Made by a program: the position numbers and the translations under genes
Shown here: in pieces, positions 1-41,138 of the stretch
Numbering within the stretch: the stretch's first letter is position 1
How the letters are laid out: every line of letters starts with the position of its first letter
Assembly (NCBI GenBank): GCA_022561095.1
Contig: JADFRV010000002.1
Location: 1-41,138 of the forward strand
DNA length: 41,138 nt
Source: Chloroflexota bacterium
GTDB lineage: Bacteria; Chloroflexota; Dehalococcoidia; SM23-28-2; RBG-16-64-32
Direction of reading: 5' to 3'
The notes under the pieces: generated by a model
Told to the model about the DNA's origin: nothing
Seen by the model: only the letters and a program-made list of their open reading frames with translations
The model's database searches: none

Positions 1-1
1 C

Positions 2-1340: not shown

Positions 1341-1445
1341 AGTGCGGCCTTTCGAACTAATTGAGCGCTTTGATTGTACTAACGAGGGTCTTCAGAAAAC
1401 GTCACGGGGGCGCCGCTCGCGAAATCAGGCGTTGCGCCGAACCGT

Positions 1446-2309: not shown

Positions 2310-2426
2310 GGCGGCGCCTCCTCATAGGTGCATGTGACGCTGGCACGGCGATTCTAGCATAAGTTTGATCTTTTCAAGCAGAAACTGTCTCCCTATCATT
2401 GAGGTCGATCCTGGAAGGAGGCTCCA

Positions 2427-3221: not shown

Positions 3222-3225
3222 GAGG

Positions 3226-4275: not shown

Positions 4276-4290
4276 AGCGTCTTCAGTCTA

Positions 4291-4319
4291 TCACCAGCCG
4301 GCGGCCGGGACGCTATTAT
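4291..4319 (+). promoter_or_regulatory. putative promoter giving a leaderless dinB mRNA (-10 TATTAT 4314-4319, weak -35 TCACCA 4291-4296)
   Basis: The -10 box ends 6 nt before the A of the ATG at 4326, and no SD is present. Confidence 0.4.
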
Positions 4320-4325
4320 GAAGAC

Positions 4326-5399: not shown

Positions 5400-5457
5400 G
5401 GGAAGGTTGGCTACGCGGATACGAGGGGTTGCTTGAGATGTGGAACGGAGACGGTGA

Positions 5458-6966
5458 TCAGACGGCGGGCTCCGGCGTCCGCTCCGCCTGGGGCTTCGCA
5501 GCCGGCACCTGGATCGTCTCCAGGAACACGCGCACCACCGTCGGGTCCCACTGGCTGCCGGCGCCGTCCTTAAGGATCTCGATCGCGGCCTCGTGTGGCA
5601 TCGCCTGCCGGTAGAGTCGGTCGGTGGTCATCGCATCGTAGGCGTCGGCGACGGCGACGATGCGCGCACCTGTAGGGGTGCGCTCGCCGCGGAGGCCGTC
5701 TGGATAGCCCTGGCCGTCCCAGCGCTCGTGGTGATGGTAGACGATCGGGTAGACGTTCATCAGGAAGGGCACCCGCTTGCAAATCTGGCCGCCGCTATAG
5801 CAGTGTTGCTTGACGATGGCGAACTCGTCCGGTGTGAGCTTGCCCGGCTTCTTCAGGATGGCGTCCGGCACGACGATCTTGCCCACGTCGTGGAGCGCCG
5901 CCCCCATCCGCACGACCTCGATCTCCTGCTGAGGTAGGGCTAGCTTGGTGGCTATGTGGGAGGCGTGCTCGGCGAGACGGTGGCAGTGGCCGCCGGTGTA
6001 GGGGTCGCGGCTCTCGATCGCCTCGGTGAGCGCCAGCGCCGTATCGAAGGCGAAGCGGGTCAGGCTCTCCCTCTGCCGCACGCTGCGGATCGCCAGCTCC
6101 GTCTGGCGGGCCAGCCGTTCCAGGCGGGTGAGCTCGTCGGGGGCGAATTGGCGCTCCCTTTCGTAGCAGATCACAAGGGCGGCGGCGACTCCCTCGTCGA
6201 ACTCCAGGGGAGCGGCGGCGGCGGACCGGTATCCCATAGTTTGGGCGAACTCGCGCAGGCTGTCATAGCGCGGGTCATCGAGGACGTTGCTGGAGGTGGC
6301 GATACGGCGGTGAAGGATAGCCCAACCGGAGACACCTTCACCGCGGGGAGCGCCGTTGGGAAACAGACGGAGGAAGTCTTCCGTCTCGAACCCGTGGGCG
6401 GCGTAGGGTCGCTCGCCGCTGGCAGGGTCGGACACCACGAGGCTGCAAAGCTTGGCGCCCGTGAGCTCTGCCACGCGGTGGGTGATCTCCCGGAGCACCT
6501 CCGTCTCATCGTCGCCGGCCATGATGGTGCTGTGGATGACGCTCAACGTCTCCAGCTCATGCTGGCGTATATCGTTGTGGGCCTGCACGTCCAGCAGGTG
6601 TTCTACGGTGTTATCGAGCTTGTCGCGCTGTGTCTTGATGTTCGCCCACTGGTTTATGGTGACGGTGAGGAAGAGGTAGACGGCAGGCCATCCCAGCCAG
6701 AACACCGGCATCACTGATTCGTTCATCTGGACGCCGAAGACGCCCATCGCCGGGCTGCTGGCCACGGAGGCCAGTATCGCTACGGAGAGGGAGTAGGGCA
6801 GGGGGTGGCGGAAAGCGAGGAAGATGATGGGCGCGAAGAACGCCGTAGTGAACACGCTAGGGATGAGGCCATCGTTGATGACCAGGAACGCGATCACGAT
6901 CGTGGCCGTGAGGGCCAGCGTCAGATCGAGTATGGGCTTACGGTTCTGCGCCGCCAAAAGGTTCAT
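5458..6966 (-). CDS. membrane-anchored GAF + HD-GYP domain c-di-GMP phosphodiesterase
   Basis: 502 aa. It has an N-terminal multi-TM region, a central GAF-like region and a C-terminal HD-GYP domain (HDVGKI...HHHERWDGQGYPDGL). Confidence 0.85.
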   Translation of the reverse strand: MNLLAAQNRKPILDLTLALTATIVIAFLVINDGLIPSVFTTAFFAPIIFLAFRHPLPYSLSVAILASVASSPAMGVFGVQMNESVMPVFWLGWPAVYLFLTVTINQWANIKTQRDKLDNTVEHLLDVQAHNDIRQHELETLSVIHSTIMAGDDETEVLREITHRVAELTGAKLCSLVVSDPASGERPYAAHGFETEDFLRLFPNGAPRGEGVSGWAILHRRIATSSNVLDDPRYDSLREFAQTMGYRSAAAAPLEFDEGVAAALVICYERERQFAPDELTRLERLARQTELAIRSVRQRESLTRFAFDTALALTEAIESRDPYTGGHCHRLAEHASHIATKLALPQQEIEVVRMGAALHDVGKIVVPDAILKKPGKLTPDEFAIVKQHCYSGGQICKRVPFLMNVYPIVYHHHERWDGQGYPDGLRGERTPTGARIVAVADAYDAMTTDRLYRQAMPHEAAIEILKDGAGSQWDPTVVRVFLETIQVPAAKPQAERTPEPAV

Positions 6967-11199: not shown

Positions 11200-12657
11200 C
11201 TAGTCTCCAGCGGCGGACGGGCTGCGCTTGCCGGATCCGGTCGCGGCGGACGAAGCCTCGCCGTTGCCGCGACTAGACTCGTCGTCGAGTAGGCCTCGCT
11301 TCTCCGCCACCAGAAACGCTCGCACCACTTCGGGGTCGAACTGACTGTTAGCGTTACGGACGATCTCTTCGACCGCCTTCCGATGCGGCAGCGTCTTGCG
11401 ATAGGGCCGGTGGGAGGTCATGGCTTCGTAGGCGTCTACAACGGCGAATATGCGGGCGCCCAGAGGGATCTCTTCGCTCTTCAGGCCGCGAGGGTAGCCG
11501 CGACCGTCGTAGCGCTCGTGGTGAGCGTGGATAACCTCCGCGGCGTCGCGCAGGAAGTCGATCTCGTTGATGATCTGGTGGCCCAGCTCCGGGTGACGTT
11601 TCATCTCCACCCAATCGGAGTCGTCCAGCGGTCCGGGCTTGGCGAGGACGGCGTCGGCGACGCCGATCTTGCCGATATCGTGGAGGATCGTCGCCTTTTC
11701 GATCTGGCGCACCTGTTCCTTGCGCAGCCCCATCTGCCAGGCCACGACGGAAGCGATCTCGGCGACGCGCCGGGCGCGGCTCTGGGTTACGTTGTCATGC
11801 AGGTCCAAGGCGGCGCAGAGGACGGCAACAATTGAGTTGTAGCGGGACTTTAGACCGTCCATGCGGGTCTGCAGGTTGGCCTCCTGATGGCTAATAGTAT
11901 TTGACCTGCGACGGACGAGGATTACCAGAACCAGATAGAGGGCCCCTAAGACAGCGGCCATTGAGATGAAGACGCTCCTCTCAATGTCCGTTATCTGATT
12001 GGCGATGGGGGTGAAGTCACGGTACACCTCCGCCACGCCTATGGCTTGGGCGGAGTCGATTTCTGTAAGGGGTACGCCTATCCGGGCTAACTCAGTGTAA
12101 GACTCCAGGCCGGGCTCTCCCAGCGAGGAGGGCTTCCCTGTCTCACTGACGACCTCGCCCTGAAGCGCGGCCTGGGTTGGGACGCGCTCAACAAGCGTCT
12201 CGCCGGAGGCTGCCTGGGCGCTGGAGTAGACGAGGACGCCGTCGCCGTTGAAGACGTTGAGGCGCACCGTACGCGAGCTGAGGACTCCTAGCTGGACCGC
12301 AGTGTCAAAAGCGGCCAGATCAGTGCCCTCTAGCGGCGCAGCCAGCATCTCCGGGCTCAGGTTACTGGTGATGTACGGCCCTACCAACTCGGTCACCTCG
12401 GTCTCCGAGTCGTTCAGAGCCGTGGCTCGGATGTCGGACGCGAGGAAGCGGGTGACAGCGAAGCCGGCGGCAAGGACGAGTACGAGGGCAAACAGCGCGA
12501 ACAAGACCGTGAACTCCAGGAGGAGTGTTCTCTTGCGGCCCCGAGCTGCCGACCTACTGACGCCAGCTAGCGCCGCCAGCTTGCCTATCATTGCCTGTGC
12601 TGCCATCGCTTTTCTCTCTTCGCTAATTCCAGGTGAGATCCTCGGGACCGGGATCAT
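11200..12657 (-). CDS. membrane sensor HD-GYP domain c-di-GMP phosphodiesterase
   Basis: 485 aa maximal ORF. It has TM, a periplasmic-like domain, TM, then HD-GYP (HDIGKI...HHERYDGRGYPRGL). The real start may be the ATG at 12609, since the longest ORF overlaps the upstream GGDEF gene by 35 nt. Confidence 0.85.
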   Translation of the reverse strand: MIPVPRISPGISEERKAMAAQAMIGKLAALAGVSRSAARGRKRTLLLEFTVLFALFALVLVLAAGFAVTRFLASDIRATALNDSETEVTELVGPYITSNLSPEMLAAPLEGTDLAAFDTAVQLGVLSSRTVRLNVFNGDGVLVYSSAQAASGETLVERVPTQAALQGEVVSETGKPSSLGEPGLESYTELARIGVPLTEIDSAQAIGVAEVYRDFTPIANQITDIERSVFISMAAVLGALYLVLVILVRRRSNTISHQEANLQTRMDGLKSRYNSIVAVLCAALDLHDNVTQSRARRVAEIASVVAWQMGLRKEQVRQIEKATILHDIGKIGVADAVLAKPGPLDDSDWVEMKRHPELGHQIINEIDFLRDAAEVIHAHHERYDGRGYPRGLKSEEIPLGARIFAVVDAYEAMTSHRPYRKTLPHRKAVEEIVRNANSQFDPEVVRAFLVAEKRGLLDDESSRGNGEASSAATGSGKRSPSAAGD

Positions 12658-13480
12658 CCGTAAGTGATTGCTGAGGCACGGACGTTGCCGATTGTGGCAG
12701 GCGCCGCCCGACCTTGTTGGCGTACATATCGGCGTCAGCCCAGTGCATCATCTCGTCCACGTCTTCGCCGCCCCAGGGGTACCCGGAGACGCCGATGGAG
12801 ACGTTGAGCAGTACGCGCAGACCTTCGTGCTCGTACATGGGGGTCTCCTCCAGCTCTTCCCAGAGGCGCTGAGCCAGAGCGTACGCCCCGCGCTTGTCCG
12901 TGTCCGGCATGAGCACTGCGAACTCGTCGCCGCCCAGACGGGCGGGAACATCGTGGTTACGGATGTGCTTGTTGATAACCTTGGCCAGATTGGCGATTAC
13001 GATATCGCCCACAGCATGGCCGTACTCGTCGTTGATCTTCTTTAATCCGTCGATGTCCAGGGCTACGAGAGCCAGCGTTTGATTGCTGGTGCGGGCGCGG
13101 GCCAACCCCTCTTGAAAGCGTTCGTAGAAGTAGCGCCGGTTGTAAAGCTCCGTCAGCTCGTCGTGCGATGCCATCTTCTCAAGCTCTATCGAGCGCAGGA
13201 TGAGTCGCCCTTGGTATCCACGCAGTAGGTCCACGTGCGTAATATGTATATAGCGGGCAGAGGCGCTCCCAAACAGGATAGGCAGGCAGACAAGTATGGG
13301 GTAGATGATGTACTGCCATAGCTGGACGGCCTCTGTGAGTATGAAGAAGGTTGCGGCCAATCCCGCCAGAGCGAGCGCAATGAAGATGCTCACCCAGGCG
13401 ATGCGGCCGATCCGCTCCTCGTCCCGTGCCAGCGGCTCTTCCGATGATACCTCTGCCCCGAGCTGTGTTATCGTGTTCAT
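12623..13480 (-). CDS. membrane-anchored diguanylate cyclase (GGDEF domain, with RxxD I-site)
   Basis: 285 aa. It has N-terminal TM helices, and RNHD lies 5 residues upstream of GGDEF (IRNHDVPARLGGDEFAVL). Confidence 0.9.
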   Translation of the reverse strand: MNTITQLGAEVSSEEPLARDEERIGRIAWVSIFIALALAGLAATFFILTEAVQLWQYIIYPILVCLPILFGSASARYIHITHVDLLRGYQGRLILRSIELEKMASHDELTELYNRRYFYERFQEGLARARTSNQTLALVALDIDGLKKINDEYGHAVGDIVIANLAKVINKHIRNHDVPARLGGDEFAVLMPDTDKRGAYALAQRLWEELEETPMYEHEGLRVLLNVSIGVSGYPWGGEDVDEMMHWADADMYANKVGRRLPQSATSVPQQSLTDDPGPEDLTWN

Positions 13481-30953: not shown

Positions 30954-31445
30954 TTACCTGTCCGCCAGCTGCGTGGCGATATCCTTGCCGATCTCCAGAG
31001 TCATGACGTCGCGTGCATCTTCTTTTAGCGCTGCTTCGACATCACGCACCCAGATGTGGTCGACGACGGCGACAAGAGCGGAAGTGCCGGGCTGCAGCCT
31101 GTCGCCCCACTGCTCGAGGCGGCTGTTGTCGAAGCCGCCGTCCTTGAGCTTGGCGACGAGGCCGCCGATGGCCGCCCCACCGAGCGCCACCCACCCGACT
31201 GGCCCCGCGATCACGCCGACAACGGCGCCGGTAACGCCGCCGAGGACAGCGCCGCGCGTGCCGGTCATGTCCTTCACGTCCCGGATGTGCAGCTTCGAGT
31301 CATGGTCCTTCCGCAGGATGGCGGCGTTCTCGATCTTTATGGACTTCTCCTTCTCCAGCTGCTTGAGGTCGTCGAAAGCCTCTTTCGCGGAGTCCATCCC
31401 GTCGAAAGCCGCTACTATCACCTGAGTTGGTACGTCGTTCGTCAT
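30954..31445 (-). CDS. DUF1269-family membrane protein (glycine-zipper TM between two soluble modules)
   Basis: It starts at the ATG at 31445 (MTNDVPTQVIVAAFDG...), with AGGAG 7 nt upstream. A G-rich TM segment GAVLGGVTGAVVGVIAGPVGWVALGGAAIGG is followed by LQPGTSALVAVV. Confidence 0.8.
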   Translation of the reverse strand: MTNDVPTQVIVAAFDGMDSAKEAFDDLKQLEKEKSIKIENAAILRKDHDSKLHIRDVKDMTGTRGAVLGGVTGAVVGVIAGPVGWVALGGAAIGGLVAKLKDGGFDNSRLEQWGDRLQPGTSALVAVVDHIWVRDVEAALKEDARDVMTLEIGKDIATQLADR

Positions 31446-31531
31446 TTCCGGGCTCCTTCCCATTCTGAACTGGATAGTTGTCTTCCGCTCATTTGAAGCC
31501 TACGAGGATAGCTCCCGCGTTGGACATGCTA

Positions 31532-31563
31532 GGAATAGTGATCTTTGTACCTAATCTTAGGTA
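31532..31563 (-). promoter_or_regulatory. stress-cluster promoter-like module, copy D: TACCTAAGA-N17-TATTCC
   Basis: The minus strand reads cTACCTAAGAttaggtacaaagatcacTATTCCtagcATGtcc. It lies 86 nt upstream of the DUF1269 start and contains the palindrome TACCTA-agat-TAGGTA. Confidence 0.5.
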
Positions 31564-31619
31564 GCCGTCCAGCGCTACGAAAATCGCGATGAGGGAACCG
31601 ATCGTGAGGGTAGTCCCTC

Positions 31620-32018
31620 TCAGGGCAACTCTTCGAACTCTTCGAGGTTCTCAGCGATTATCCGGATGATACCCAAGTTCAGCGCCAAGACGACGATAGC
31701 CCATAGCGGCGCAACGAAGATGATGAAGATTGTAAACGTCGCGCTGACAAACGCTCCGAAAAGCGCGATGATGGCACCGATCGGGCTGCGCGAGAAGAGA
31801 AGGATCCCCGTGATCAGCTGAACGACGCCAACTGTCAGCCAGAGCCAGCCCCAGGTCTCGATATCGATGCCGTAGAGCACTACGCTCAACTGGCCGGTGA
31901 CGGAATCGCTCTCCGCGATGGCGCCAGCCCCGCTCAGCGTGTTGTACAAGCCGGCGATCGCCACCAATACGGCGGCGAACGTGACCCAGCCTGAATGTCT
32001 GCTAGTGGAGTTGGCCAT
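31620..32018 (-). CDS. four-TM membrane protein, DUF7144/HdeD-like
   Basis: It starts at the ATG at 32018 (MANSTSRHSGWVTFAAVL...ETWGWLWLTVGVVQLITGILLF...), with GGAGGTG 6 nt upstream. The longest ORF, to 32270, has no support. Confidence 0.6.
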   Translation of the reverse strand: MANSTSRHSGWVTFAAVLVAIAGLYNTLSGAGAIAESDSVTGQLSVVLYGIDIETWGWLWLTVGVVQLITGILLFSRSPIGAIIALFGAFVSATFTIFIIFVAPLWAIVVLALNLGIIRIIAENLEEFEELP

Positions 32019-32096
32019 TCTCTGCACCTCCAATCTCTGCAGTGTGTCCAAGACGCCGTTTAGTATGTGCGCAGGGGAAGAGCTAGGGCATGGCTG

Positions 32097-32128
32097 ATGC
32101 TCGGTATATTGGTACCTACTTCTCGTTA
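32097..32128 (-). promoter_or_regulatory. stress-cluster promoter-like module, copy F (most divergent): TAACGAGAA-N17-GAGCAT
   Basis: The minus strand reads cTAACGAGAAgtaggtaccaatataccGAGCATcagccATGccc. It lies 78 nt upstream of the ATG at 32018. Confidence 0.4.
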
Positions 32129-32484
32129 GCGAGGGCCTGATGAAGCGAGATCGCGTGAGAACGGCGTCGGCTGGCTGGGTGAGGCGCATAGTTGAAGCTC
32201 GATCGTGAAGGCACATCACGAATGTGCAGGCCTTCTCGGTCATCGCCTCAGGGGTGCCGGTCATCCACATTCCTAGCGTAACCGCTAGCGATGTCTTTGG
32301 TATGGTCGCTCACGAAGGTGATGCTGCAGGTAGCCAAAGGGCTCGTGGCCTGCGCCTGGATATTCCATAACACGGAAGCATAATCGTCCTGAAGAAGGTG
32401 CAGCGCCACAAGGCCGACTTCAAGTGATCCGAGAGAACCAAACAACTCAAGGGAGTCCGCCGCCGACATCCAGATCGAGGTGAG

Positions 32485-32769
32485 CTAGTACGGTGCGATC
32501 TGTCGGCGTCCGCCGTAGCCGCCGCCGAAAAAGGAAACAAGGTCTGCAATGACGGCGAACGCCAGCCACACGACGTCGAATCCAGACAGATGACCCCTGG
32601 GCGCGACCATCACAAAAATCAACGTCGTCCAAGGCAAGAACAGGGATCCAAGGAGGGGCCAGATAAACGTGTCGAACGCGGCGTCCCAGCGATTGGGGTT
32701 GATCAACCACCAAAAGAAGATCGCGGATCGCGGACCGGCCAGAAGCATAATGGCTAAAAGACAGCCCAT
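32485..32769 (-). CDS. small hypothetical membrane protein (94 aa, ~3 TM, GGGYGGR tail)
   Basis: AGGAGG lies 6 nt upstream of the ATG. Its hydrophobic helices are rich in W and F. Confidence 0.55.
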   Translation of the reverse strand: MGCLLAIMLLAGPRSAIFFWWLINPNRWDAAFDTFIWPLLGSLFLPWTTLIFVMVAPRGHLSGFDVVWLAFAVIADLVSFFGGGYGGRRQIAPY

Positions 32770-32879
32770 TTACAGCCTCCTATGCGGCCTACTCTTCGGA
32801 TGGGAGCGGGAAGTGGTCATTCCGGCCCCCAAGTTCATTTCTTTCATTTTCACGCGCGAGGGAGGTGGGCACATGGCAA

Positions 32880-32911
32880 AGACTGAGTACATTCGTAACG
32901 ATTGCTAGGTA
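32880..32911 (-). promoter_or_regulatory. stress-cluster promoter-like module, copy E: TACCTAGCA-N17-CAGTCT
   Basis: The minus strand reads cTACCTAGCAatcgttacgaatgtactCAGTCTttgccATGtgcc. It lies 110 nt upstream of the ATG at 32769. Confidence 0.5.
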
Positions 32912-33370
32912 GCGCCTCCCTGCGTTGAAGAGGTAAGTTTATGAGGCAGCGTCCCTTCGTGCCCGCGCCTATCGTTAAATTTGGCGATGGCTTGGCTTCA
33001 CGGAGGATCGGCGCCAGGGGCTGAGGCCCTCAATGAGCATCGCCCGAGCAGGCGCTCCCTCAGCCCTCCCGACCTTCATAGGCGCGGCGACGAGAAAGTA
33101 TCGGCCGCCGGCATCCGTGGTGGGTTCCCGCTGCTGCTGGCTCTCGGCGGGCTCGCGCTTGCCCCGGCGATTGTGGGCCGTTGCCGAGCTGGCCTGGTCG
33201 CCGGCACGCTGTAGTAGCTATAACGGCGGGCCGCTGGTATGCCAGGAGGAGCTGGCTGCGGTAGGGGACGCGACCGTGCGCCTGGGCTGGGCGGCAGCCT
33301 CTCGCTCCCCCGCGCTCAGTTCGCGCGCTGTAGGTGTCCAGTCGGCGCCGCGGGGGACGGCAGAAATCCC

Positions 33371-33402
33371 TACTGAGAAATCGTTACGGGAATACCTAGT
33401 CT
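33371..33402 (+). promoter_or_regulatory. stress-cluster promoter-like module, copy A: TACTGAGAA-N17-TAGTCT
   Basis: Sequence TACTGAGAAatcgttacgggaataccTAGTCTctgccGTGtgcc. It lies 155 nt upstream of the DUF1269 paralog start. Confidence 0.5.
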
Positions 33403-33557
33403 CTGCCGTGTGCCAGGCTCCTACGGCACGCGACAATCTGTTGTGTTGGTAGTGTTCATGGGGCTTGGGCAGGCGCGACAGCGTATGCTGGCGGCCTCGC
33501 ACCCGTCATGAATAAGCACGTTCACAAGATCGAATTTACCCGGAAAGGAGCATCGTC

Positions 33558-34085
33558 ATGGGAAAGCAGCTTGAGCTAATGGCCTCTGTGTATATGGATG
33601 AGGAGGGCGCCAAGACGATCCTCGACGCGCTCCAGAGGATGCATCGCGCCTCCAACATCACACTGGCCGACGCGGCGATGGTGACGAAGGACGCTGACGG
33701 TAAGCTGCACATCAAGGAGACGCGGGAAGTCACCGCAGGCAAGGGCGCCCGGCGCGGCGCCCTGATCACCGGCGTCCTGGGCCTGATCTACCCGCCTAGC
33801 CTGATCGCTTCGGTGCTCGCCGGCGGGCTGATTGGCGGTGCCTGGGGAAGGCTGCGTGACACCGGCATTAAGACTGGAGCGATGAAGGATCTCGGCAGCA
33901 GCCTGGAGCCCGGGAACGCCGCCGTGGTAGCGCTGGCCGAGCCGCAGTTTGTGGAGCTGATCGTGCAGACAATGGAGGCCTACCCGGGAAAATTCCTCCG
34001 ACACGGTTTCAGCGCGGAAGAAGCCGCGCAGATCGAGGACGCAGCCGCAACCGGCGACGCCAGCCGAGGAGCCGATGAAGCCTGA
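33558..34085 (+). CDS. DUF1269-family membrane protein, second paralog
   Basis: 175 aa with the same architecture as 30954-31445: LMASVYMDEEGAKT..., KDADGKLHIKE, the G-rich TM segment GALITGVLGLIYPP..LAGGLIGGAWG and LEPGNAAVVALA. AAAGGAG lies upstream. Confidence 0.75.
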   Translation: MGKQLELMASVYMDEEGAKTILDALQRMHRASNITLADAAMVTKDADGKLHIKETREVTAGKGARRGALITGVLGLIYPPSLIASVLAGGLIGGAWGRLRDTGIKTGAMKDLGSSLEPGNAAVVALAEPQFVELIVQTMEAYPGKFLRHGFSAEEAAQIEDAAATGDASRGADEA

Positions 34086-34202
34086 ACCGACTCCCGAGCC
34101 TGACATCCTAAGCGCTTCGATGTTTGCCGGCATCAAGGGGGTCGTGACCGTCTCTTAGACGGTCGCTAAGGATGGTCAGCCTTTCAGACCATAGGGTCGG
34201 CC

Positions 34203-35567
34203 GTGCCTGAGCGAAGCGCCGCGGAGGCCGGAGAGCGACCGAAGGTTATCGTCGTCGGAGGCGGCTTCGGCGGGCTGGAGGTCGTCCGCGGCCTTAAGCA
34301 CGCACCCGTTGACGTGATCCTGATCGACCAGCAGAACTACCATCTGTTTCAGCCGCTCCTCTATCAGGTGGCCACCGCAGAGCTCGCTCCGTCTGACGTG
34401 GCCGCGCCCCTCCGCAAGATTCTTCGAGGTCAGAAGAACGTGCAGGTTGTCTTAGCGAGAGTCATGGGTGTTGACCTCCAGGCCAAGCTTGTCAGAGGCC
34501 CTCGAGCTGAGGCCCGCTACGACTATCTCGTGCTGGCAACTGGTGCAACGCAGTCCTACTTTGGGCACCCCGAGTATCAGGAGTTCGCGCCCGGCCTAAA
34601 GACACTAGACGACGCGATCGAAATTCGCAGGCGCGTATTGCTGGCCTTCGAGGAAGCGGAGTGGGAGGCGGACGACGCGTCTCGCCGGGCCAAGTTGACG
34701 TTCATTGTGGTAGGGGGCGGACCGACGGGCGTTGAGCTTGCCGGCGCGATCATGGAGACGGCTTCGCGCTCGATTCCGAAGGACTTCCGATTCGTCGATA
34801 CCAGCACTGCCCGCGTGATCCTAGTGCAGGGGTCGGGACGGCTGCTCAAGGCCATGCCAGAGGCGCTGGGCGAGCTAGCGCGGCGCGATCTGGAAAAGAT
34901 GGGGGTTGAGGTATGGCTCAATACGCGCGTGACTTCAGCTGGCGCTGATGGAGTCGTCATTGGCGAGCGCCGTGTGCCCGCGGAGAACGTCTTGTGGGCG
35001 GCAGGCGTACACGGCCAGCCGGTCGCCCGCGCGCTTGGAGTCGAGCTCGATCGTGCCGGTCGCGTGATCGTGGGATGCGACATGTCGATTCCCGGCCACC
35101 CAGAGGCGTTTGTCATCGGCGATGCGGCACACGCCATCGACTCCAGGACCGGCGAACCCGTTCCGGGCGTCGCCCAGGGCGCGATTCAGACCGGCAGGTT
35201 CGTCGCGGAGATCATCCGGCGAGACCTCCAGGGCGTCAAGCCCCAGGACAGGCCGGCGTTCAGCTACAAGGATAAGGGCTCCATGGCCGCGATCGGCCGG
35301 GGGCGGGCCGTGGTCTCCGTCGGCAAGATTGAACTGGGTGGATTTCTGGGCTGGCTGGCCTGGGGCGGTCTGCACGTTCTGTTCCTGGTGGGATTCCAGA
35401 CCAAGATCTTCGTGTTCCTCTCATGGGTTCGGAACTATCTCTTCGCGGACCGCCGCGTACGCCTTATAACCGGGGATCCGCAGGCGTCGGTCAAGCGGCC
35501 GCGGGGCGCCACGCTCCTTGGCGAGCGACCGTCCGCTGGGGAGGATCACGGTGACTCGCCCGAATAG
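34203..35567 (+). CDS. type II NADH:quinone oxidoreductase (NDH-2), FAD/NAD(P)-binding
   Basis: 454 aa with a GTG start. VIVVGGGFGGLE, NYHLFQPLLYQVAT, a second GGGPTGVE Rossmann motif and a C-terminal membrane-anchoring helix region are typical of NDH-2. Confidence 0.9.
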   Translation: MPERSAAEAGERPKVIVVGGGFGGLEVVRGLKHAPVDVILIDQQNYHLFQPLLYQVATAELAPSDVAAPLRKILRGQKNVQVVLARVMGVDLQAKLVRGPRAEARYDYLVLATGATQSYFGHPEYQEFAPGLKTLDDAIEIRRRVLLAFEEAEWEADDASRRAKLTFIVVGGGPTGVELAGAIMETASRSIPKDFRFVDTSTARVILVQGSGRLLKAMPEALGELARRDLEKMGVEVWLNTRVTSAGADGVVIGERRVPAENVLWAAGVHGQPVARALGVELDRAGRVIVGCDMSIPGHPEAFVIGDAAHAIDSRTGEPVPGVAQGAIQTGRFVAEIIRRDLQGVKPQDRPAFSYKDKGSMAAIGRGRAVVSVGKIELGGFLGWLAWGGLHVLFLVGFQTKIFVFLSWVRNYLFADRRVRLITGDPQASVKRPRGATLLGERPSAGEDHGDSPE

Positions 35568-35572
35568 CTCGT

Positions 35573-35637
35573 GTCACCCGCTCCAAAACTAGACTGAAGC
35601 GTGCTCTGATGGTCGCGGAAGGGTGGTCATCTGCTTT
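35573..35637 (+). repeat. imperfect duplicate of the tRNA-Gly 3' end plus its downstream terminator
   Basis: GTCaCCCGCTCCAA matches 13 of 14 nt of tRNA positions 24841-24854. GATGGTCG and CATCTGCTTT then recur at identical offsets (+35 and +55). About 43 of 65 nt match overall by hand alignment. Confidence 0.55.
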
Positions 35638-35640
35638 ATT
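35608..35640 (+). terminator. weak hairpin (gatggtc...ggtcatc, with G-U pairs) + CTGCTTTATT downstream of NDH-2
   Basis: Its sequence is related to the tRNA terminator, and a T-rich tail is present. Confidence 0.35.
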
Positions 35641-35782
35641 GTGGCACGCCATCGACTCCACTCGATGCAGGGCCGTCCCCGACCCTTCCCGCCACGTACC
35701 AGCTAATTTAATTCTCGTATCTGAAGACAGCCTCTCCTAGATGACCGTCAGACAGCCGGGCAGAAGGACCTATCAAGCTGTC

Positions 35783-35814
35783 TACCTAGAAATAGGTACG
35801 AAAATCATTAGCCT
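35783..35814 (+). promoter_or_regulatory. stress-cluster promoter-like module, copy C: TACCTAGAA-N17-TAGCCT
   Basis: Sequence cTACCTAGAAataggtacgaaaatcatTAGCCTctgccATGcg. It lies 92 nt upstream of the SHOCT gene and contains the palindrome TACCTA-gaaa-TAGGTA. Confidence 0.5.
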
Positions 35815-35906
35815 CTGCCATGCGAAGACATTACGAGGGTGGCACACTCGATGGAGAGTTGGCTGCGGCATTGCCAACCCGAGGGGAGATAGGAGGACAC
35901 TAGCCG

Positions 35907-36128
35907 ATGTTCCTTGACCTCTCGACCTTCTGGTCGGTCGTGATCATATTCTTCGTTTTCGCACCGCTCCTGCTGTTACTGCTCACGCCGCTAGTTGACT
36001 TGGTCATGTGGAGCAACTTTTCTGCGGTCGTTCGAGTGGTTGAGCTCAGGAAGCTAGCCGACCTTCGCAATGAGGGGGTCATCACCGACGAGGAGTTCGC
36101 CAGGCAGAAGAAGAAGCTGCTCGGCTGA
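35907..36128 (+). CDS. membrane-anchored SHOCT-domain protein
   Basis: 73 aa. It has an N-terminal TM segment. The C-terminal LRKLADLRNEGVITDEEFARQKKKLLG fits the SHOCT motif. AGGAGG lies upstream. Confidence 0.65.
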   Translation: MFLDLSTFWSVVIIFFVFAPLLLLLLTPLVDLVMWSNFSAVVRVVELRKLADLRNEGVITDEEFARQKKKLLG

Positions 36129-36215
36129 GCGTGTCGCCGCCCCAGCGCCGGCTGGCTACGGGGATGAACCCTCATGCCCGGCTGCTGAGCAGCTGCGATG
36201 TTGGGAGGTCGACAG

Positions 36216-36569
36216 ATGGCGCTGAGTGCTCCGGTAAAGGTCCTGCTGATCGTTGCTTACACCGCGGCTGTCGCCGCTGGGGCGTTTGGTATCGGCTATG
36301 CCGTTTTCGATTCGGGAGACGAGGACGGAGATGTTGCCCAGGGGATCCAGGATGGGCGCATCGATGAGCTGGCGGACAGCCTGTTGGACCGCATCGACCG
36401 ATGCCCCGATGAGCTATCGCGACTGACGAGACTTGTCGGCCAGGCGCTGATCGGCCACATATCCGGTAGTGACCTCGAGCGAGAGCTCCGTGTGCTCGCT
36501 GGTCAGTACCTGGCCTGCGCCGCGACAGCTCGAGCGGCAGACGGGCCGAGCGGATCAGAGGAGCCTTGA
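36216..36569 (+). CDS. hypothetical N-terminally anchored protein
   Basis: The ATG at 36216 has GGGAGG 7 nt upstream. One TM helix (VKVLLIVAYTAAVAAGAFGIGYAVF) is followed by an acidic soluble region. I recognise no family. Confidence 0.45.
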   Translation: MALSAPVKVLLIVAYTAAVAAGAFGIGYAVFDSGDEDGDVAQGIQDGRIDELADSLLDRIDRCPDELSRLTRLVGQALIGHISGSDLERELRVLAGQYLACAATARAADGPSGSEEP

Positions 36570-36600
36570 CGCAAACGAACGCCTATGCAGCCGTAACCGA

Positions 36601-38577
36601 ATGACTCTTCTTCGCCTCACCCTGTACGTCTGCGCCTTTGGAGCGTTGCTACTCCTCGCTGTTTCGGACGATGGTGCTGTGAGCGCGGAATCTGGGCGCG
36701 CGGACCACGCGCCAGGCGTTCCAGGGCTTGGAGAGCTCCGACAGCAAACAGACGAAGAGCAGCTCGTCGCCAAGTACGCTCCCATCGTCTATCTCGGACG
36801 GCAAGACGAGGAGTGCGATAGTGATGGCGATCCGTTCGACCCGGCGCCGGTCGAGATCGTCCTAGACAACCCAGAGGTGACGCTCAGGGAGGACGCCCCA
36901 GGCAGGCCGGTCGTGATGGAGGGGCCTGGTGCGCAAGACGTCTTCGACAAAGACATCGGCTTCTTTCTTGACTTCCCGGGCAACCCGAGGCGGCCGGGCT
37001 GCACGTACGACCGGGACTACCAGGAGCTGAAGGCCAGCAATCCACCTGTGGCCTACGCTCATATCCAGACGGAACCAGGTTTCGATGGGCTCGCCCTGCA
37101 GTACTGGTTCTTCTACTACTTCAACGACTGGAACAACACTCACGAGGGCGACTGGGAGATGATCCAGCTCGCCTTCGACGCCGACTCAGCGAGCGAGGCC
37201 CTCCAGCAAGACCCAGTGAGGGTGGCGTACTCTCAGCATGAGGGGGGCGAAATCGCCGACTGGGATGAAGGGAAGGTGAAGACGGAGGAGGGTCGGCCGG
37301 CCGTCTATGTCGCCAGGGGGTCGCACGCCAACTATTTCCAGCCGGGGACTTACATAGGAGTGGCCCGTGAAGGCGCCGGATTCGGATGCGAGGACTCATC
37401 GGATCCGCTGAGGCGAGTGGCGCTCGAGGCACAGCTGGTGCCTCCCGAGGTGACCGATGCGGACAGCCCCTTCGCTTGGATCGAATTCGAGGGCCGCTGG
37501 GGCGAGTTGCAGGGCAAGCACTTTGACGGCCCCACGGGGCCAGCGCAAAAGGAGAAATGGGAGAAGCCGTTCACCTGGGAACAGGATCTGCGCAGTTACA
37601 GCGAGAAGATCCCCGAAGGCGAGGCTCTCGGCATCGATCCCTTGGGGCCGATCTGTGCGATCATCGGCTTCGGCTCGTCTCTGATGAACGCGATTGTGCA
37701 GTGGCCGGCGCCGGTTGGCGCGGCGATGGGGGTCTTCTTCCTGGCCACTGTTGGATTCTTGGTCGTAGGTGTACCCAGGCGGGTATTCGGTGGCGCGCCC
37801 GTGGAGGCAGAGGCGCCGCCGAGGAAGGGGTTGCTCCAGCGACGGCGCGCGTTGGGCCAGATTGGGAGAGACGCGGCCATCATGTATGTGAAGAACCTGC
37901 GAGTGTTCGTGCCCATCGGGGTAGTCTTCATCCCGCTGGGCATCGCCGCCACCGCCGTTCAGGCACTACTTCGCCTCGATGACCATATACCCAGCCAAGG
38001 GGCCGCGTCGCTGCTGGTGTTCTCCTTGGGAGGCGCGCAGGCGCTAGTCAGCGCCATCATCTTGGGCGGCGCGATCTTCGCTGCGCTTCGGGAGATCGAT
38101 GGCGGCCGGAGGGCCAGCTTCAGGGACGCTTACCGTGTCGTCTTGCTCCGGTTGTGGACGCTGCTGGGTGCGAACCTCCGCTCCTTGTTCCACATTGTCG
38201 TCCTCGCCTTCACCATCATTGGGACGCCTTGGGCGGTCCACCGGGCCATCGCCTGGGGCTTCGTTGGACAAGCCGTCGTGCTTGATGACAGGGGCGCGAA
38301 GGAGTCGTTGAGCGCCAGCGCTGAGGCCGTCAGGGGCAACTGGTGGCGTACCTTCGCCATATTGACCGCCATCGTAATCATGGTCGTACTGCCTGGCCCG
38401 ATCATAGCCATGGCTCTTCTTCTGTTCGCTTCGCCGCCCGTTACCGATATGGTCTACACGGTGAATGCGGCTTTGTACTCGTTGATGCTTCTCCCGTTCG
38501 CCTTCACGGCCTCGACGTTGCTGTACTCCGATTTGAAGGCGCGGAAGAACCCCGATGTGCCGCCTAGAAACGCCTGA
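36601..38577 (+). CDS. Vps62/DUF946-like extracytoplasmic domain fused to a C-terminal polytopic membrane domain
   Basis: It starts at the ATG at 36601 (MTLLRLTLYVCAFGALLLLAV, a signal or anchor sequence). The core YWFFYYFNDWNNTHEGDWEMIQLAF...YSQHEGGE...GRPAVYVARGSHANYFQPG parallels the plant/fungal Vps62/DUF946 signature (H-x-GDWEH, SQHSGG, HGHA). The last ~280 aa form 6 or more TM helices. Confidence 0.7.
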   Translation: MTLLRLTLYVCAFGALLLLAVSDDGAVSAESGRADHAPGVPGLGELRQQTDEEQLVAKYAPIVYLGRQDEECDSDGDPFDPAPVEIVLDNPEVTLREDAPGRPVVMEGPGAQDVFDKDIGFFLDFPGNPRRPGCTYDRDYQELKASNPPVAYAHIQTEPGFDGLALQYWFFYYFNDWNNTHEGDWEMIQLAFDADSASEALQQDPVRVAYSQHEGGEIADWDEGKVKTEEGRPAVYVARGSHANYFQPGTYIGVAREGAGFGCEDSSDPLRRVALEAQLVPPEVTDADSPFAWIEFEGRWGELQGKHFDGPTGPAQKEKWEKPFTWEQDLRSYSEKIPEGEALGIDPLGPICAIIGFGSSLMNAIVQWPAPVGAAMGVFFLATVGFLVVGVPRRVFGGAPVEAEAPPRKGLLQRRRALGQIGRDAAIMYVKNLRVFVPIGVVFIPLGIAATAVQALLRLDDHIPSQGAASLLVFSLGGAQALVSAIILGGAIFAALREIDGGRRASFRDAYRVVLLRLWTLLGANLRSLFHIVVLAFTIIGTPWAVHRAIAWGFVGQAVVLDDRGAKESLSASAEAVRGNWWRTFAILTAIVIMVVLPGPIIAMALLLFASPPVTDMVYTVNAALYSLMLLPFAFTASTLLYSDLKARKNPDVPPRNA

Positions 38578-38619
38578 CACGGGGCCACCGAGCTCTCTCG
38601 TTTCTTACCCGACTCCGCT

Positions 38620-39768
38620 ATGGACGGAACGGTTGTGAGGAGGTTGTGGCTGCTCGCGACGCGGGCGTACAAGGGGTTCGGCGCGCATAACAGTACCCAG
38701 ATGGCGGCGGCCATCTCCTACTACTTTCTGTTCGCCCTCGTCCCCCTGGCGATGTTCCTCGTTTCCATCTTCGGTCTGGTGGCCGGGAGCGACGACTCCC
38801 ATCAGTCCCTGGCGGACGAGGTGACGGACTATCTCGAGGTCGGAGCGGGCGAACCCGTCCTCGAGCTGAGCGAGGACGCCTTCGTCAGGATTGAGGAGCA
38901 GTACGGCCGAGCCGGGCTGGCAGAGATCGAGAAGGAGCTAGCGGATCTGAACGAGTCTGGGGACAGCGGCGAGGAGAGGCGGCGGATGGCCGACACCCTC
39001 GATGCCGGCGGTACAGTCACCGTGGCGAACCGTCAACTCCAACCGGAAGACTTGTCCGCGGGCCAGGACAACCTCATCACTGATACGTTGGACAACGTGT
39101 CGCAGGCGAGCGTGCCTCTAGGTGTCATCGGGCTGGTTATGGTGGCCTACAGCGCCTCCGTCCTCTTCGGGGCCGTACGCCGATCGCTGAACTTCGTCTG
39201 GGGGGTCGACGCGCAGCGGCCGCTTGTGCAGCAGAAGCTGATCGACTTGGCGATGTTGCTGGGACTGGCGCTGCTGTTGCTCGCCTCTGTTGCCGCTACG
39301 GCGGCCCTGCAGACGGTGCGCGAGATGAACAGCGGCCCCATTTCGTCAAGCGGGGGTATCTTCTGGTCGCTGCTGCCCTTCGCCGCCCCCTGGGCCGTTA
39401 CGTTTCTTTTGTATCTGTTCACGTTCCGATTTGTACCCAACGCCCGAAATAGATTTCGAGACGTATGGTTGGGAGCGGCGCTGGCGGCAACGGCGTTCGA
39501 GGTGCTGAAGTACGGCTACGCCATCTATGTTGCGAACTTCGGCCACTACGACGTGGTCTACGGCGCCCTCGGTGGCATCCTACTCTTCATGTTCTTCACC
39601 TACCTAGTCGCCTATACGTTCCTGCTGGGGGCTGAGGTGGCGTTCGAGTATCCCCGGGTGCTGCGCGGCGGCTTCGACGAGGACGAAGGCCAGCCCGAGG
39701 ACGGTCGCAGCCTTGCAGAGAGGATTCTCAGCGGGGTACGCGGGCTGTTCCTGGCCAAACGCGACTAG
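38620..39768 (+). CDS. YihY/BrkB-family membrane protein with enlarged acidic first loop
   Basis: 382 aa. AAAISYYFLFALVPLAMFLVSIFG, ...GALGGILLFMFFTYLVAYTFLLGAEVAFEY are hallmark YihY segments. About 107 aa lie between TM1 and TM2. Confidence 0.85.
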   Translation: MDGTVVRRLWLLATRAYKGFGAHNSTQMAAAISYYFLFALVPLAMFLVSIFGLVAGSDDSHQSLADEVTDYLEVGAGEPVLELSEDAFVRIEEQYGRAGLAEIEKELADLNESGDSGEERRRMADTLDAGGTVTVANRQLQPEDLSAGQDNLITDTLDNVSQASVPLGVIGLVMVAYSASVLFGAVRRSLNFVWGVDAQRPLVQQKLIDLAMLLGLALLLLASVAATAALQTVREMNSGPISSSGGIFWSLLPFAAPWAVTFLLYLFTFRFVPNARNRFRDVWLGAALAATAFEVLKYGYAIYVANFGHYDVVYGALGGILLFMFFTYLVAYTFLLGAEVAFEYPRVLRGGFDEDEGQPEDGRSLAERILSGVRGLFLAKRD

Positions 39769-39865
39769 GCCGCCTAGATCATTTGCCGCTGAGCCGCCGT
39801 CCCGCAGCGGCTCACCAACACGTTGTGCCCTGAGCGTTTGTGCTGCTGACCCAGTTCGTGAGAAG

Positions 39866-39897
39866 TAACGAGAAATCATTACGAATGTACCTAGTCT
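39866..39897 (+). promoter_or_regulatory. stress-cluster promoter-like module, copy B: TAACGAGAA-N17-TAGTCT
   Basis: Sequence gTAACGAGAAatcattacgaatgtaccTAGTCTctgcactgcg. It lies 85 nt upstream of the YtxH-like start. 27 of 33 nt are identical to copy A over the core. Confidence 0.5.
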
Positions 39898-39982
39898 CTG
39901 CACTGCGTGGGTCTGTTGCGGCCTGAGATACTCGACCTGGCTACCGCCGCAAACCGATCGGAGTGCAGCTAGGAGGCAGAAT

Positions 39983-40144
39983 ATGCGGTTCGTTATTGGT
40001 CTGATGCTTGGCATGGCGTTGGGCACAAGTCTTGGCTTGCTGGCCGCCCCGCAGCGCGGCAGCGAGACCATTCGGGTCATACGCGAGCGGCTTCAACAGC
40101 GAGGCGAAACGGACCCTGACGAGGACGACTTGGCGGGCGTCTAA
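39983..40144 (+). CDS. YtxH-like small protein (53 aa; not in the supplied ORF track)
   Basis: The ATG has AGGAGG 6 nt upstream. MRFVIGLMLGMALGTSLGLLAAPQRGSETIRVIRERL... resembles the YtxH N-terminal helix plus the 'AP.SG.ETR' motif. Confidence 0.55.
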   Translation: MRFVIGLMLGMALGTSLGLLAAPQRGSETIRVIRERLQQRGETDPDEDDLAGV

Positions 40145-40173: not shown

Positions 40174-40332
40174 CTACAGCAGCCACAACACGAAGAGGAC
40201 AACGAAAGCCAAAAAGAAGAGGGAGAACGCCCGCCTCGCGAGCACAGCCAGGGCGGCCGCCGCAAAGAAGAAGCCGAACGCCCCGGAGGCGGCGGCCAGG
40301 ACCCCAAAGACGAACAAGAGGATCAGTATCAT
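40174..40332 (-). CDS. tiny hydrophobic protein (52 aa, 2 TM)
   Basis: MILILLFVFGVLAAASGAFGFFFAAAALAVLARRAFSLFFLAFVVLFVLWLL. The SD is weak or distant. Confidence 0.3.
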   Translation of the reverse strand: MILILLFVFGVLAAASGAFGFFFAAAALAVLARRAFSLFFLAFVVLFVLWLL

Positions 40333-40356
40333 GGCGGCGGGTATCGTCCCTCCGAG

Positions 40357-40569
40357 CTATCCGTCTGTTCGTCCTCTCGCTTGGCCCACGACCCTGTCGA
40401 GGACCAGATAGCAGGCGACTGTGACCGGGGTCCAGACGGTCGTGGCGGCAGCCCCGAAGACGGCGACCGCCGTATCACGTTCTTCCCGGCCAATCGCGAT
40501 CACGAATAGACAGCTCGCGATAATGATGAGGGTTAGGAACCCGACTACGATCCGCTCTCCCGATGTCAT
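40357..40569 (-). CDS. small hydrophobic protein (70 aa, 2 TM)
   Basis: This is a listed ORF. Its ATG overlaps the stop of the upstream tiny ORF (TGATG). Confidence 0.4.
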   Translation of the reverse strand: MTSGERIVVGFLTLIIIASCLFVIAIGREERDTAVAVFGAAATTVWTPVTVACYLVLDRVVGQARGRTDG

Positions 40570-40724
40570 CAGACCTGCAACAATACGACGACGATAAAGG
40601 CGGCCAGCAGGATGAGGAACAGCACCCTGGCGATGCGGCCGGTAACGGTGGCGAAAGCGGTAAAACCGTACGCCGCGGCGATCGCTGACATCACTCCAAA
40701 GAAGATGGCCAGCACTAGGAGCAC
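40569..40724 (-). CDS. tiny hydrophobic protein (51 aa, 2 TM)
   Basis: The GTG at 40724 has GGTAGGAG 8 nt upstream. The sequence is VLLVLAIFFGVMSAIAAAYGFTAFATVTGRIARVLFLILLAAFIVVVLLQV. Confidence 0.35.
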   Translation of the reverse strand: MLLVLAIFFGVMSAIAAAYGFTAFATVTGRIARVLFLILLAAFIVVVLLQV

Positions 40725-40925: not shown

Positions 40926-41138
40926 CTAGGAGCAGTCCAAGCCCGAGAACGCCGTATCGTATGCGGCGTCGACGGCGGCCAGTTGAGGCGCGATAGAGGC
41001 GAGGCCCTCTACAATGGTGGCGTCGCCCGGGATGTCGTTGATCGCCTGAGCCAGGTCGTCGTAGGCATCATCGATGGGCTGCGTCCTCACGTCCACAACA
41101 TCCCGCGCCGAAGCGTCAACGTCATCGAGAGCATCGCT
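40926..41138 (-). CDS. hypothetical protein, C-terminal 70 aa (5' end outside window)
   Basis: The minus frame is open from the window edge to the TAG at 40926-40928 (SDALDDVDASARDVVDVRTQPIDDAYDDLAQAINDIPGDATIVEGLASIAPQLAAVDAAYDTAFSGLDCS). Its composition is acidic and helical. Confidence 0.5.
   Translation of the reverse strand, partial: SDALDDVDASARDVVDVRTQPIDDAYDDLAQAINDIPGDATIVEGLASIAPQLAAVDAAYDTAFSGLDCS

Follow-up and report, generated by a model that had tools for sequence, protein, structure and literature searches.

We describe a sequence module of about 42 nt that occurs six times between positions 31,523 and 39,907 of a Dehalococcoidia contig (JADFRV010000002.1, positions 1 to 41,138; this whole stretch of 41,138 nt, with 64% G+C, is called the window below), each time in front of small stress- or membrane-protein genes. 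The same module was found in relatives before these and further genes, among them the gene for a sigma factor of the extracytoplasmic function (ECF) type. Tentatively, and with a probability of roughly 0.45, we read it as a complete core promoter of a lineage-specific stress and envelope regulon in marine-sediment Dehalococcoidia, which would be read by an ECF sigma factor and carry an embedded operator for a dimeric regulator.

An earlier note on this DNA, made from the letters alone, had listed six copies, A to F, and checking the sequence confirmed every one of them at its position and on its strand. Three lie on the reverse strand: module D at 31523..31563 (positions 1-41 of the module, with a 1-nt deletion between TAnnnT and CATG) upstream of a DUF1269 gene, module F at 32087..32128 upstream of a DUF7144 (HdeD-like) gene, and module E at 32870..32911 upstream of a gene for a 94-aa membrane protein and then a 73-aa open reading frame (ORF). 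On the forward strand, module A (33371..33412) precedes a DUF1269 paralog and NDH-2, module C (35783..35824) a SHOCT gene and, after it, an ORF of 117-123 aa, a Vps62-like gene and YihY, and module B (39866..39907) a YtxH-like gene. The two boxes by which the copies were first recognized are exactly 17 nt apart in all six. With a 40-nt position weight matrix (PWM) built from these sites, they score 44.7-63.1 bits and the next-best position of the window scores -1.9; when each site is left out in turn, it ranks right after the other five among 82,198 positions. The degenerate pattern TAMYKARVANTNNNTANNNNNNTNNNNA has six matches, against 0.00 expected from 100 dinucleotide-preserving shuffles, and neither PWM nor pattern scan revealed a seventh module within the 41-kb window. 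The 32-mers of the six sites average 37% G+C compared with 64% in the window. All modules point toward the next gene, with 69-156 nt from position 32 to the start codon, close to the 75-155 nt given before. Four loci, L001-L004, are identical copies of the window contig, and the independent gene calls on L001 place module D in an intergenic region. Identical copies of modules C and B are present in loci L027 and L014 of metagenome-assembled genomes (MAGs).

The module proved longer than the 32 nt originally assigned to it: conservation begins sharply at position 1, with none upstream, reaches about position 42 (GCCATGYG) and declines past about position 43. It is composed of three copies of the hexamer TAMCKA, namely H1 at positions 1-6 (forward), H2 at 11-16 (reverse) and H3 at 23-28 (forward), in the layout [H1 forward]-GAAA-[H2 reverse]-CGAA-nn-[H3 forward] followed by GCCATG. 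The final TA of H3 (TACYTA) begins a TAnnnT at positions 27-32. In the first 30 distinct modules, A6, A9, T11, A16, T23 and A28 are invariant and T1, T15, A19, A20, A24 and T27 nearly so; T32, G35, C36, A38, T39 and G40 are also conserved. Of these 30 sites, 87% have T27 and 73% have T32, with C or T at -13, and over all 38 distinct modules A28 occurs in 38, TAnnnT in 24 and TAnnnY in 33. Split-PWM scans of about 480 kb of loci revealed no variants with 1-2-nt shifts between parts of positions 1-32. The sole indel, of 1 nt, falls between T32 and CATG and was found in two promoter families.

In base frequencies, columns 1-6 almost equal columns 11-16 read as reverse complement, and the strongest symmetry centre lies at position 8.5, as expected of a dyad operator of the GerE/LuxR type. 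H2 occurs as TCGTTA, TAGGTA, TCATTA or TCGGTA, and any H1 variant can accompany it. The two spacer subfamilies proposed earlier are thus only variants of this inverted half-site (TCGTTA and TAGGTA), freely combined with the upstream half-site in modules E and F of the window and in relatives. Within sites, the pairs 3-14, 4-13 and 5-12 are complementary at the level expected from shuffled columns. Symmetry in the absence of covariation denotes a protein-binding dyad rather than a hairpin, and a hairpin of positions 1-16 with a GAAA loop, in RNA or DNA, was rejected on these pairs. The earlier suggestion that conservation beyond a bare -35/-10 marks an overlapping protein-binding site is in this way strengthened.

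Homologs of the DUF1269 protein of the window are labelled Chloroflexi, Dehalococcoidia or Thermomicrobiales. In relatives whose DUF1269 ortholog is 86-87% identical, the gene order differs and the module is present. Locus L005 carries it before PLDc_N-DUF1269-SulP, before a lipoprotein gene and before DUF1269, and L009 before PLDc_N, DUF1269, a cupredoxin-multicopper oxidase-DUF1269 operon and a 194-aa gene. By PWM, 38 distinct modules were found over all loci, 19 of them within about 68 kb of the MAG 'uncultured Dehalococcoidia binchicken_co85_35', and at least 30 sites in relatives add to the six of the window. In the loci with independent gene calls, all 20 placements are intergenic and co-oriented with the next gene; the count includes five placements that repeat window sites identically, and the stretches L009 and L068 of one contig overlap. 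The distance from position 32 to the start codon is 69-260 nt over all loci, and a Shine-Dalgarno sequence is present in most cases. The genes behind the modules encode small stress or membrane proteins (DUF1269, PLDc_N, SHOCT, YtxH, DUF7144, STAS-like) as well as Excalibur, sulfatase, metallo-beta-lactamase-fold, methyltransferase, cupredoxin and DUF6454 proteins, secreted lipoproteins and the ECF sigma factor. This recurrence before the same and further genes in another gene order supports the dedicated regulon that had been suspected from the window.

A strict 26-nt pattern, which recovers 4 of 13 known sites, was searched in 185,579 species-representative genomes, where about 13 chance matches are expected at 50% G+C. 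Sixteen stretches were found. Nine of them (11 matches) belong to MAG binchicken_co85_35 and two to other Chloroflexota MAGs; the remaining five, in unrelated low-GC genomes (28-43% G+C), are at chance level. Extrapolation from the 11 matches in one MAG and the recovery of 4/13 gives a regulon of roughly 35 operons. Among the chance matches, those in Muribaculaceae and Coprovivens MAGs are near-perfect palindromes, ATAAGTACGAA(C/A)GTACTTAT (L019 6838-6869; L026 4972-5003 and 5190-5221), which occur twice within 220 bp in L026 and may be operators of an unrelated regulator. Our search of the literature on ECF, Chloroflexi and Dehalococcoidia promoter motifs yielded no published account of the module.

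Conservation at orthologous loci, whose absence the earlier note would have taken as refuting its proposal, was found: the promoters of the orthologs of the DUF1269 gene behind module A share the module and about 50 nt of leader in four genomes (window, L027, L005 and L009) and diverge upstream of -8. The orthologous modules differ exactly at low-information positions. In the more distant L013 and L071, H2 is gone from the DUF1269 promoter, in which H1, H3 and CATG remain with their spacing unchanged, so that H1 and H3 are the persistent elements; the PLDc_N promoter of L071 retains all three hexamers, not A19/A20. A core-only PWM (H1, H3 and start region) applied to 145 kb of more distant loci found just these two sites, in L013 and L071, versus 0 in shuffles, which restricts the module to a narrow lineage. 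The 5' leader after module A (33403-33450, +; L005 9913-9960; L009 8231-8280) is conserved between species and holds, where the transcript is predicted to start or close by, a stem-loop of GTGCC...GGCAC; L009 retains this leader although the cupredoxin operon replaces DUF1269 downstream. In L025 (Chloroflexi MAG SZUA-185), a HisKA_3-type kinase and NarL-type response regulator pair and a CsrA-like gene (2841-4803, -; 5043-5405, +) lie within 4 kb of a module-driven PLDc_N.

These placements also bear on whether the module might be no promoter at all. Being short, AT-rich and multicopy, with positions 1-16 that can be drawn as a GAAA-looped hairpin, it could be taken for part of a transcript (a leader or riboswitch-like RNA element), a small mobile repeat resembling miniature inverted-repeat transposable elements or repetitive extragenic palindromes, or a recombination site. 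We regard this as highly improbable. Rfam at the gathering threshold detected only the tRNA in the window, the three pairs show no excess complementarity, orientation is tied to the downstream gene with one antisense exception, and orthologous positions are kept across species. For a mobile repeat in particular, no terminal repeats were seen and no target duplications are visible in the aligned flanks. The antisense exception is a 44-bit module in L015 (4745-4776, -; MAG B103T1B8, Chloroflexota) just past the stop codon of lpdA and directed into the 3' end of that gene; this copy may be orphaned, may act as an antisense promoter or may be left over from a rearrangement.

In the loci examined, the only regulator gene directly downstream of a module encodes the ECF sigma factor. 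Its product (L023:6676-7311) contains Pfam Sigma70_r2 and r4 and passes the ECF superfamily model TIGR02937 with 92 bits against a cutoff of 42.9. The best NCBIfam match is the BldN family TIGR02952 at 135.5 bits, below the cutoff of 206.45, and the ShbA family score of 102 also stays below its cutoff of 209; these scores place the protein in the ECF superfamily only and outside the BldN family. Its best solved relatives are BldN (6dxo, E = 4.9e-21), SigL and sigma-ShbA. In L023, L031, L032 and L068, whose sigma proteins are 82-100% identical, the sigma gene lies in the same gene island and has a module 100-270 nt upstream, as expected of an autoregulated ECF promoter. All seven sigma loci of the module clade (L023, L031, L032, L068, L030, L045 and L048) have a second module immediately downstream of the gene. 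The protein has a conserved N-terminal extension of about 45 aa, and no anti-sigma gene is co-transcribed with or adjacent to the module-clade sigma gene. A sister-clade homolog with 66% identity (L067 10001-12435) is translationally coupled to a 609-aa DUF5667/DUF5666 membrane protein, which is a likely anti-sigma factor. In the sister clade (sigma homologs of about 70% identity), an apparent classic ECF promoter upstream of the sigma gene, GAGTAACC-N16-CGTATC, was considered and rejected, because its TAA is where the preceding gene stops, and in L067 the triplet is TAG; a looser reading TAACCT-N17-TATCTA is possible and was given little weight.

The most likely factor to read the module would be RNA polymerase with this BldN/ShbA-like ECF sigma factor. 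H1 would serve as the -35 element and H3, 16 nt downstream, as the -10 element, with transcription starting near G35. If TAnnnT at 27-32 is the real -10 element, the start would fall near A38-G40 and the module would span roughly -38 to +4. Since the sigma gene bears the module, positive autoregulation is implied. Sigma-ShbA is known to read CGTAAC-N16-CGATGA, with -12, -11 and -7 critical, and the module resembles this promoter in its hexamer-N16-hexamer geometry with TAAC in the upstream hexamer of 15 of 38 sites. The information content of H3 peaks at its positions 1, 2 and 6, in the profile high, high, lower, lowest, medium, high; this profile and the H1-N16-H3 geometry resemble those of sigma-ShbA promoters. 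The Streptomyces systems of BldN (ECF121) and sigma-ShbA are similar also in the sigma factor itself, which has BldN as best family match, 6dxo as best solved relative and an N-terminal extension, and autoregulated ECF regulons likewise have their motif before the sigma gene and a few dozen other operons. The differences are considerable. The family scores remain below the cutoffs (135.5 vs 206; 102 vs 209), C-12 and G-11 are not conserved in the module whereas its spacer and start-site region are, its two hexamers are identical with an inverted third between them, no anti-sigma is co-transcribed, and the targets are stress and envelope genes and not chaplins or hrdB.

A core promoter is favoured by the sharp 5' edge and the span of the module, the lack of gapped variants, the intergenic and co-oriented placement and the Shine-Dalgarno sequences at the start codons. 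The upstream box was said to be unlike housekeeping promoters, and this held: none of the six modules passes a sigma-70 consensus scan, and at the -35 position only 1-3 of the 6 bases agree with TTGACA. Only the -10 half of a housekeeping promoter is found (TAnnnT and the invariant A28). The further claim that no known sigma consensus fits stood for SigB/SigF and sigma-54 and needs to be qualified for ECF factors, in view of the sigma-ShbA geometry and of TAAC/AAC at positions 2-4 in 15 of 38 sites. In the canonical ECF register, with AAC at 2-4 and CGT at 21-23, CGT is present in 6/38 and both together in 2/38 sites only, a weak fit, and this register was not adopted. The SigB/SigF type GTTT-N12-17-GGGTAT was discarded, since conservation is absent upstream of position 1 and a GGGTAT at the proper distance is missing, and compared by eye the consensus sequences of SigB/SigF, sigma-54, LexA (CGAAC-N4-GTTCG), IHF and the radiation-desiccation response motif (RDRM) do not fit.

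A number of points weigh against the promoter-plus-operator reading. The ECF fit is weak, as the AAC and CGT counts show; the spacer is strongly conserved (T11, A16, A19, A20), which is atypical of ECF promoters; and T27, A28 and T32 resemble a -10 element of the group-1 type. The identity of H1 and H3 is expected of a multimeric transcription factor and not of the -35 and -10 elements of a sigma factor, and a centre near -30 would be an unusual place for the operator of a LuxR-type activator. Within the module clade, the sigma genes of L045 and L048 have no module of their own within 420 nt and follow an MFS-channel operon. The PAS-LuxR genes introduced below have no module of their own by PWM scan of the loci, and their link to the module is adjacency alone.

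Alternatively, the module might be purely an ECF sigma promoter with no second protein, its extra conservation being due to unusually extensive contacts with sigma or RNA polymerase or to recent common descent of promoter copies. The module-driven sigma gene in four genomes, a conserved span equal to the footprint of a holoenzyme on a core promoter, the rigid spacing and the sigma-ShbA-like geometry speak for it. We consider it quite unlikely, as neither a dyad-symmetric stretch such as positions 1-16 nor identical hexamers such as H1 and H3 are known from sigma recognition, the AAC/CGT signature is weak, and the divergence at low-information positions denotes selection on the spacer and not recent copying.

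In the promoter-plus-operator reading, the operator involves H2, the same hexamer inverted, which together with H1 makes a 16-bp dyad and, with H3, an everted repeat. The dyad would be the operator of a dimeric helix-turn-helix regulator, and the lead candidates are PAS-LuxR proteins encoded beside module-driven genes. PAS-GerE (LuxR-type) genes abut module-driven genes in L009/L068, in L018 and in L013. In L018, a Dehalococcoidia MAG, two tandem paralogs of about 880 aa (1431-6778) lie directly upstream of the module at 6846, and L009/L068 have a single ortholog at the equivalent position; in L011 a MalT-GerE gene abuts the gene families that elsewhere carry the module. Such a regulator, probably a repressor, would gate every promoter of the regulon, including that of the sigma gene itself, and would replace the co-transcribed anti-sigma factor absent from the clade.

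The predicted operator resembles known GerE/LuxR sites. The NarL 7-2-7 site is TACYYMT-N2-AKRRGTA; the module likewise has a 16-bp dyad with outer TAC...GTA, its half-site TACCTA fits TACYYM, and GerE-domain genes are adjacent. The predicted site differs from these dyads in its centre at about -30, its fixed distance to the -10 region and its third half-site, and, compared by eye only, the candidate regulators have other recognition-helix residues than NarL. Activator boxes in place of a -35 element include the pho box of PhoB, the T4 MotA box centred at -30 and the PimM operators of PAS-LuxR type over the -35 region. Like the promoters with these boxes, the module has a good TAnnnT -10 element, no -35 consensus and a conserved element over the -35 region at fixed distance; its sequence is another, and its conservation runs on through spacer, -10 element and start site.

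A second cassette of about 45 nt was found in L011, L012 and L077, which are Thermomicrobiales-like contigs. It has four GGTGA/TCACC half-sites in the form TCACC(C)TGGGTGA-N11-12-GGGTGATG-N6-CACCC, which in L011 and L077 is TCACCTGGGTGA-N11-GGGTGATG-N6-CACCC, and it precedes DUF1269 and other small genes beside a MalT-GerE gene. The sites are 6384(+), 9831(+), 7685(-) and 3714(-) in L011, 3208(+), 4864(+), 10017(+) and 723(-) in L077, and 3027(+) and 881(-) in L012. The TCACC/GGTGA arms of the L011 and L077 cassettes resemble the palindrome of BldM, TCACcCgnncGgGTGA (PMC4125116). This cassette appears to be a parallel solution to the module of the window. Its presence before the same gene families in L011 and L077 favours an array of transcription-factor sites as the general principle, which adds to the points against an ECF-read promoter.

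Such an array is the basis of another explanation, in which a transcription factor alone, for example a multimeric PAS-LuxR helix-turn-helix protein on three TAMCKA half-sites, recruits a housekeeping or group-2 sigma holoenzyme, in the manner of PhoB, PimM or MotA. The -10 element would be TAnnnT at 27-32, the start A38-G40, no -35 element would exist, and the ECF sigma gene would be one target in a cascade. A hexamer repeated three times, forward-reverse-forward, with symmetric preferences and no covariation is the signature of a multimeric helix-turn-helix protein. The invariant A28, the frequencies of T27 and T32 in the 30 sites, the C or T at -13, as in -10 elements of group 1/2, and the absence of a TTGACA-like -35 element all conform to this, as do the LuxR-type genes adjacent in four lineages and the four-half-site GGTGA cassette of L011/L077 with its BldM-like arms beside a MalT-GerE gene. 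We nevertheless find it doubtful, though possible, for the dyad centre lies at about -30 and not at the -41.5/-42.5 of classical class II or LuxR activators, variants lacking H2 survive in L013 and L071, no candidate regulator gene bears the module or sits in the window, and inclusion of the ECF sigma gene by chance in four genomes is less expected than autoregulation.

The module could also be only the operator of a repressor over ordinary housekeeping promoters, in the style of DdrO/RDRM, LexA or HrcA. Half-sites over the -35 and -10 regions are in the classic position for repression, and the downstream genes are stress genes. The operators of repressor regulons vary in position and overlie promoters with their own -35 and -10 elements; the geometry of the module is invariant in 38 sites with no sigma-70-type -35 element, and this explanation is very unlikely. 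The RDRM of Deinococcus, with its repressor DdrO, varies in position relative to the promoter. It is similar to the module as a palindromic element of about 17 bp common to promoters of unrelated stress genes; there is no sequence similarity, and DdrO/IrrE genes were not seen in the examined loci, in which no systematic search for them was made.

An extended form of the promoter-plus-operator reading is unlikely as a whole. Here an anti-sigma-less BldN-like ECF sigma factor would run the general stress response of marine-sediment Dehalococcoidia from promoters, its own among them, that are rigid 42-bp cassettes, with -35 and -10 elements of the same hexamer and the inverted copy as PAS-LuxR operator, and sister Chloroflexota lineages would have rebuilt such a cassette from GGTGA before the same gene families. 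The promoter itself would then assume the gating role normally held by an anti-sigma factor. The three hexamers at fixed spacing and the independent GGTGA analogue in sister lineages are a useful case of how promoter and operator could be fused. Should it turn out to be no more than an ECF promoter, the module is a new but ordinary example.

The gene content conforms to the general stress regulons of SigB (Bacillus), EcfG (alphaproteobacterial) and SigF (mycobacterial), which comprise many small, little-known stress and membrane proteins with one promoter type before unrelated genes. YtxH is a family of the SigB regulon, and STAS-like, SHOCT and DUF1269-type proteins are also shared. The module does not match the promoters GTTT-N-GGGTAT and GGAAC-N16-17-CGTT of these systems, its phylum is another (Chloroflexota), and no partner-switching genes were seen beside the sigma gene. 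We regard the module as the mark of a new lineage-restricted regulon, with a promoter that would be of a known general kind but of unusually rigid triple-hexamer architecture. To our knowledge, there is no experimental knowledge of transcriptional regulons in uncultured Dehalococcoidia. The module joins proteins of unknown function (DUF1269, PLDc_N, SHOCT, YtxH, DUF7144, DUF6454 and lipoproteins) into one putative stress and envelope response and points to a candidate sigma factor and candidate co-regulators. Logan/ENA contigs with the DUF1269 and SHOCT genes of the window are metagenomic, run past the module and carry no information on 5' ends.

Pfam confirmed these gene families of the window: DUF1269 (twice), DUF7144, NDH-2, SHOCT, Vps62-like, YihY/BrkB and YtxH. 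It assigned no family to the 94-aa protein or to the 73-aa product behind it. On the reverse strand, the DUF1269 gene of module D extends over 30954..31445 from a 163-aa start called in L001 (the ORF extends to 31463), the DUF7144 gene of module F over 31620..32018, and the 94-aa gene (32485-32769) and 73-aa ORF (32248-32469) of module E over 32248..32769. On the forward strand, the DUF1269 paralog (33558-34085) and NDH-2 (34203-35567) follow module A over 33558..35567. A terminator-like hairpin with a T-run at 35608..35641 (+), predicted by consensus scan only, lies downstream of NDH-2 and about 140 nt before module C, consistent with A and C heading separate transcription units. Module C is followed over 35907..39768 (+) by SHOCT (35907-36128), the ORF, the Vps62-like membrane protein and YihY/BrkB (38620-39768), for which the same-strand order suggests co-transcription, and module B by the YtxH-like gene at 39983..40144 (+).

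The 3' part of a lipoprotein gene is present at 40926..41096 (-). By eye it is similar to module-driven genes in L005 and L014, a 144-aa gene at L005:7883 and a 143-aa gene after L014:3920, and a seventh module probably lies just past the end of the window as its promoter. Three small membrane-protein ORFs (40174-40724, -) follow the truncated gene. As stated before, no sigma, anti-sigma or transcription-factor gene was found by Pfam scan among the large ORFs of the window. Its remaining genes belong to ordinary metabolism, besides two HD-GYP genes, one GGDEF gene, DinB and tRNA-Gly. DinB (Pol IV) is located at 4326-5399, and the two HD-GYP-type genes, one with a GAF domain, form with the GGDEF gene a cyclic di-GMP cluster (5458-6966, 11200-12657 and 12623-13480) upstream of the stress island.

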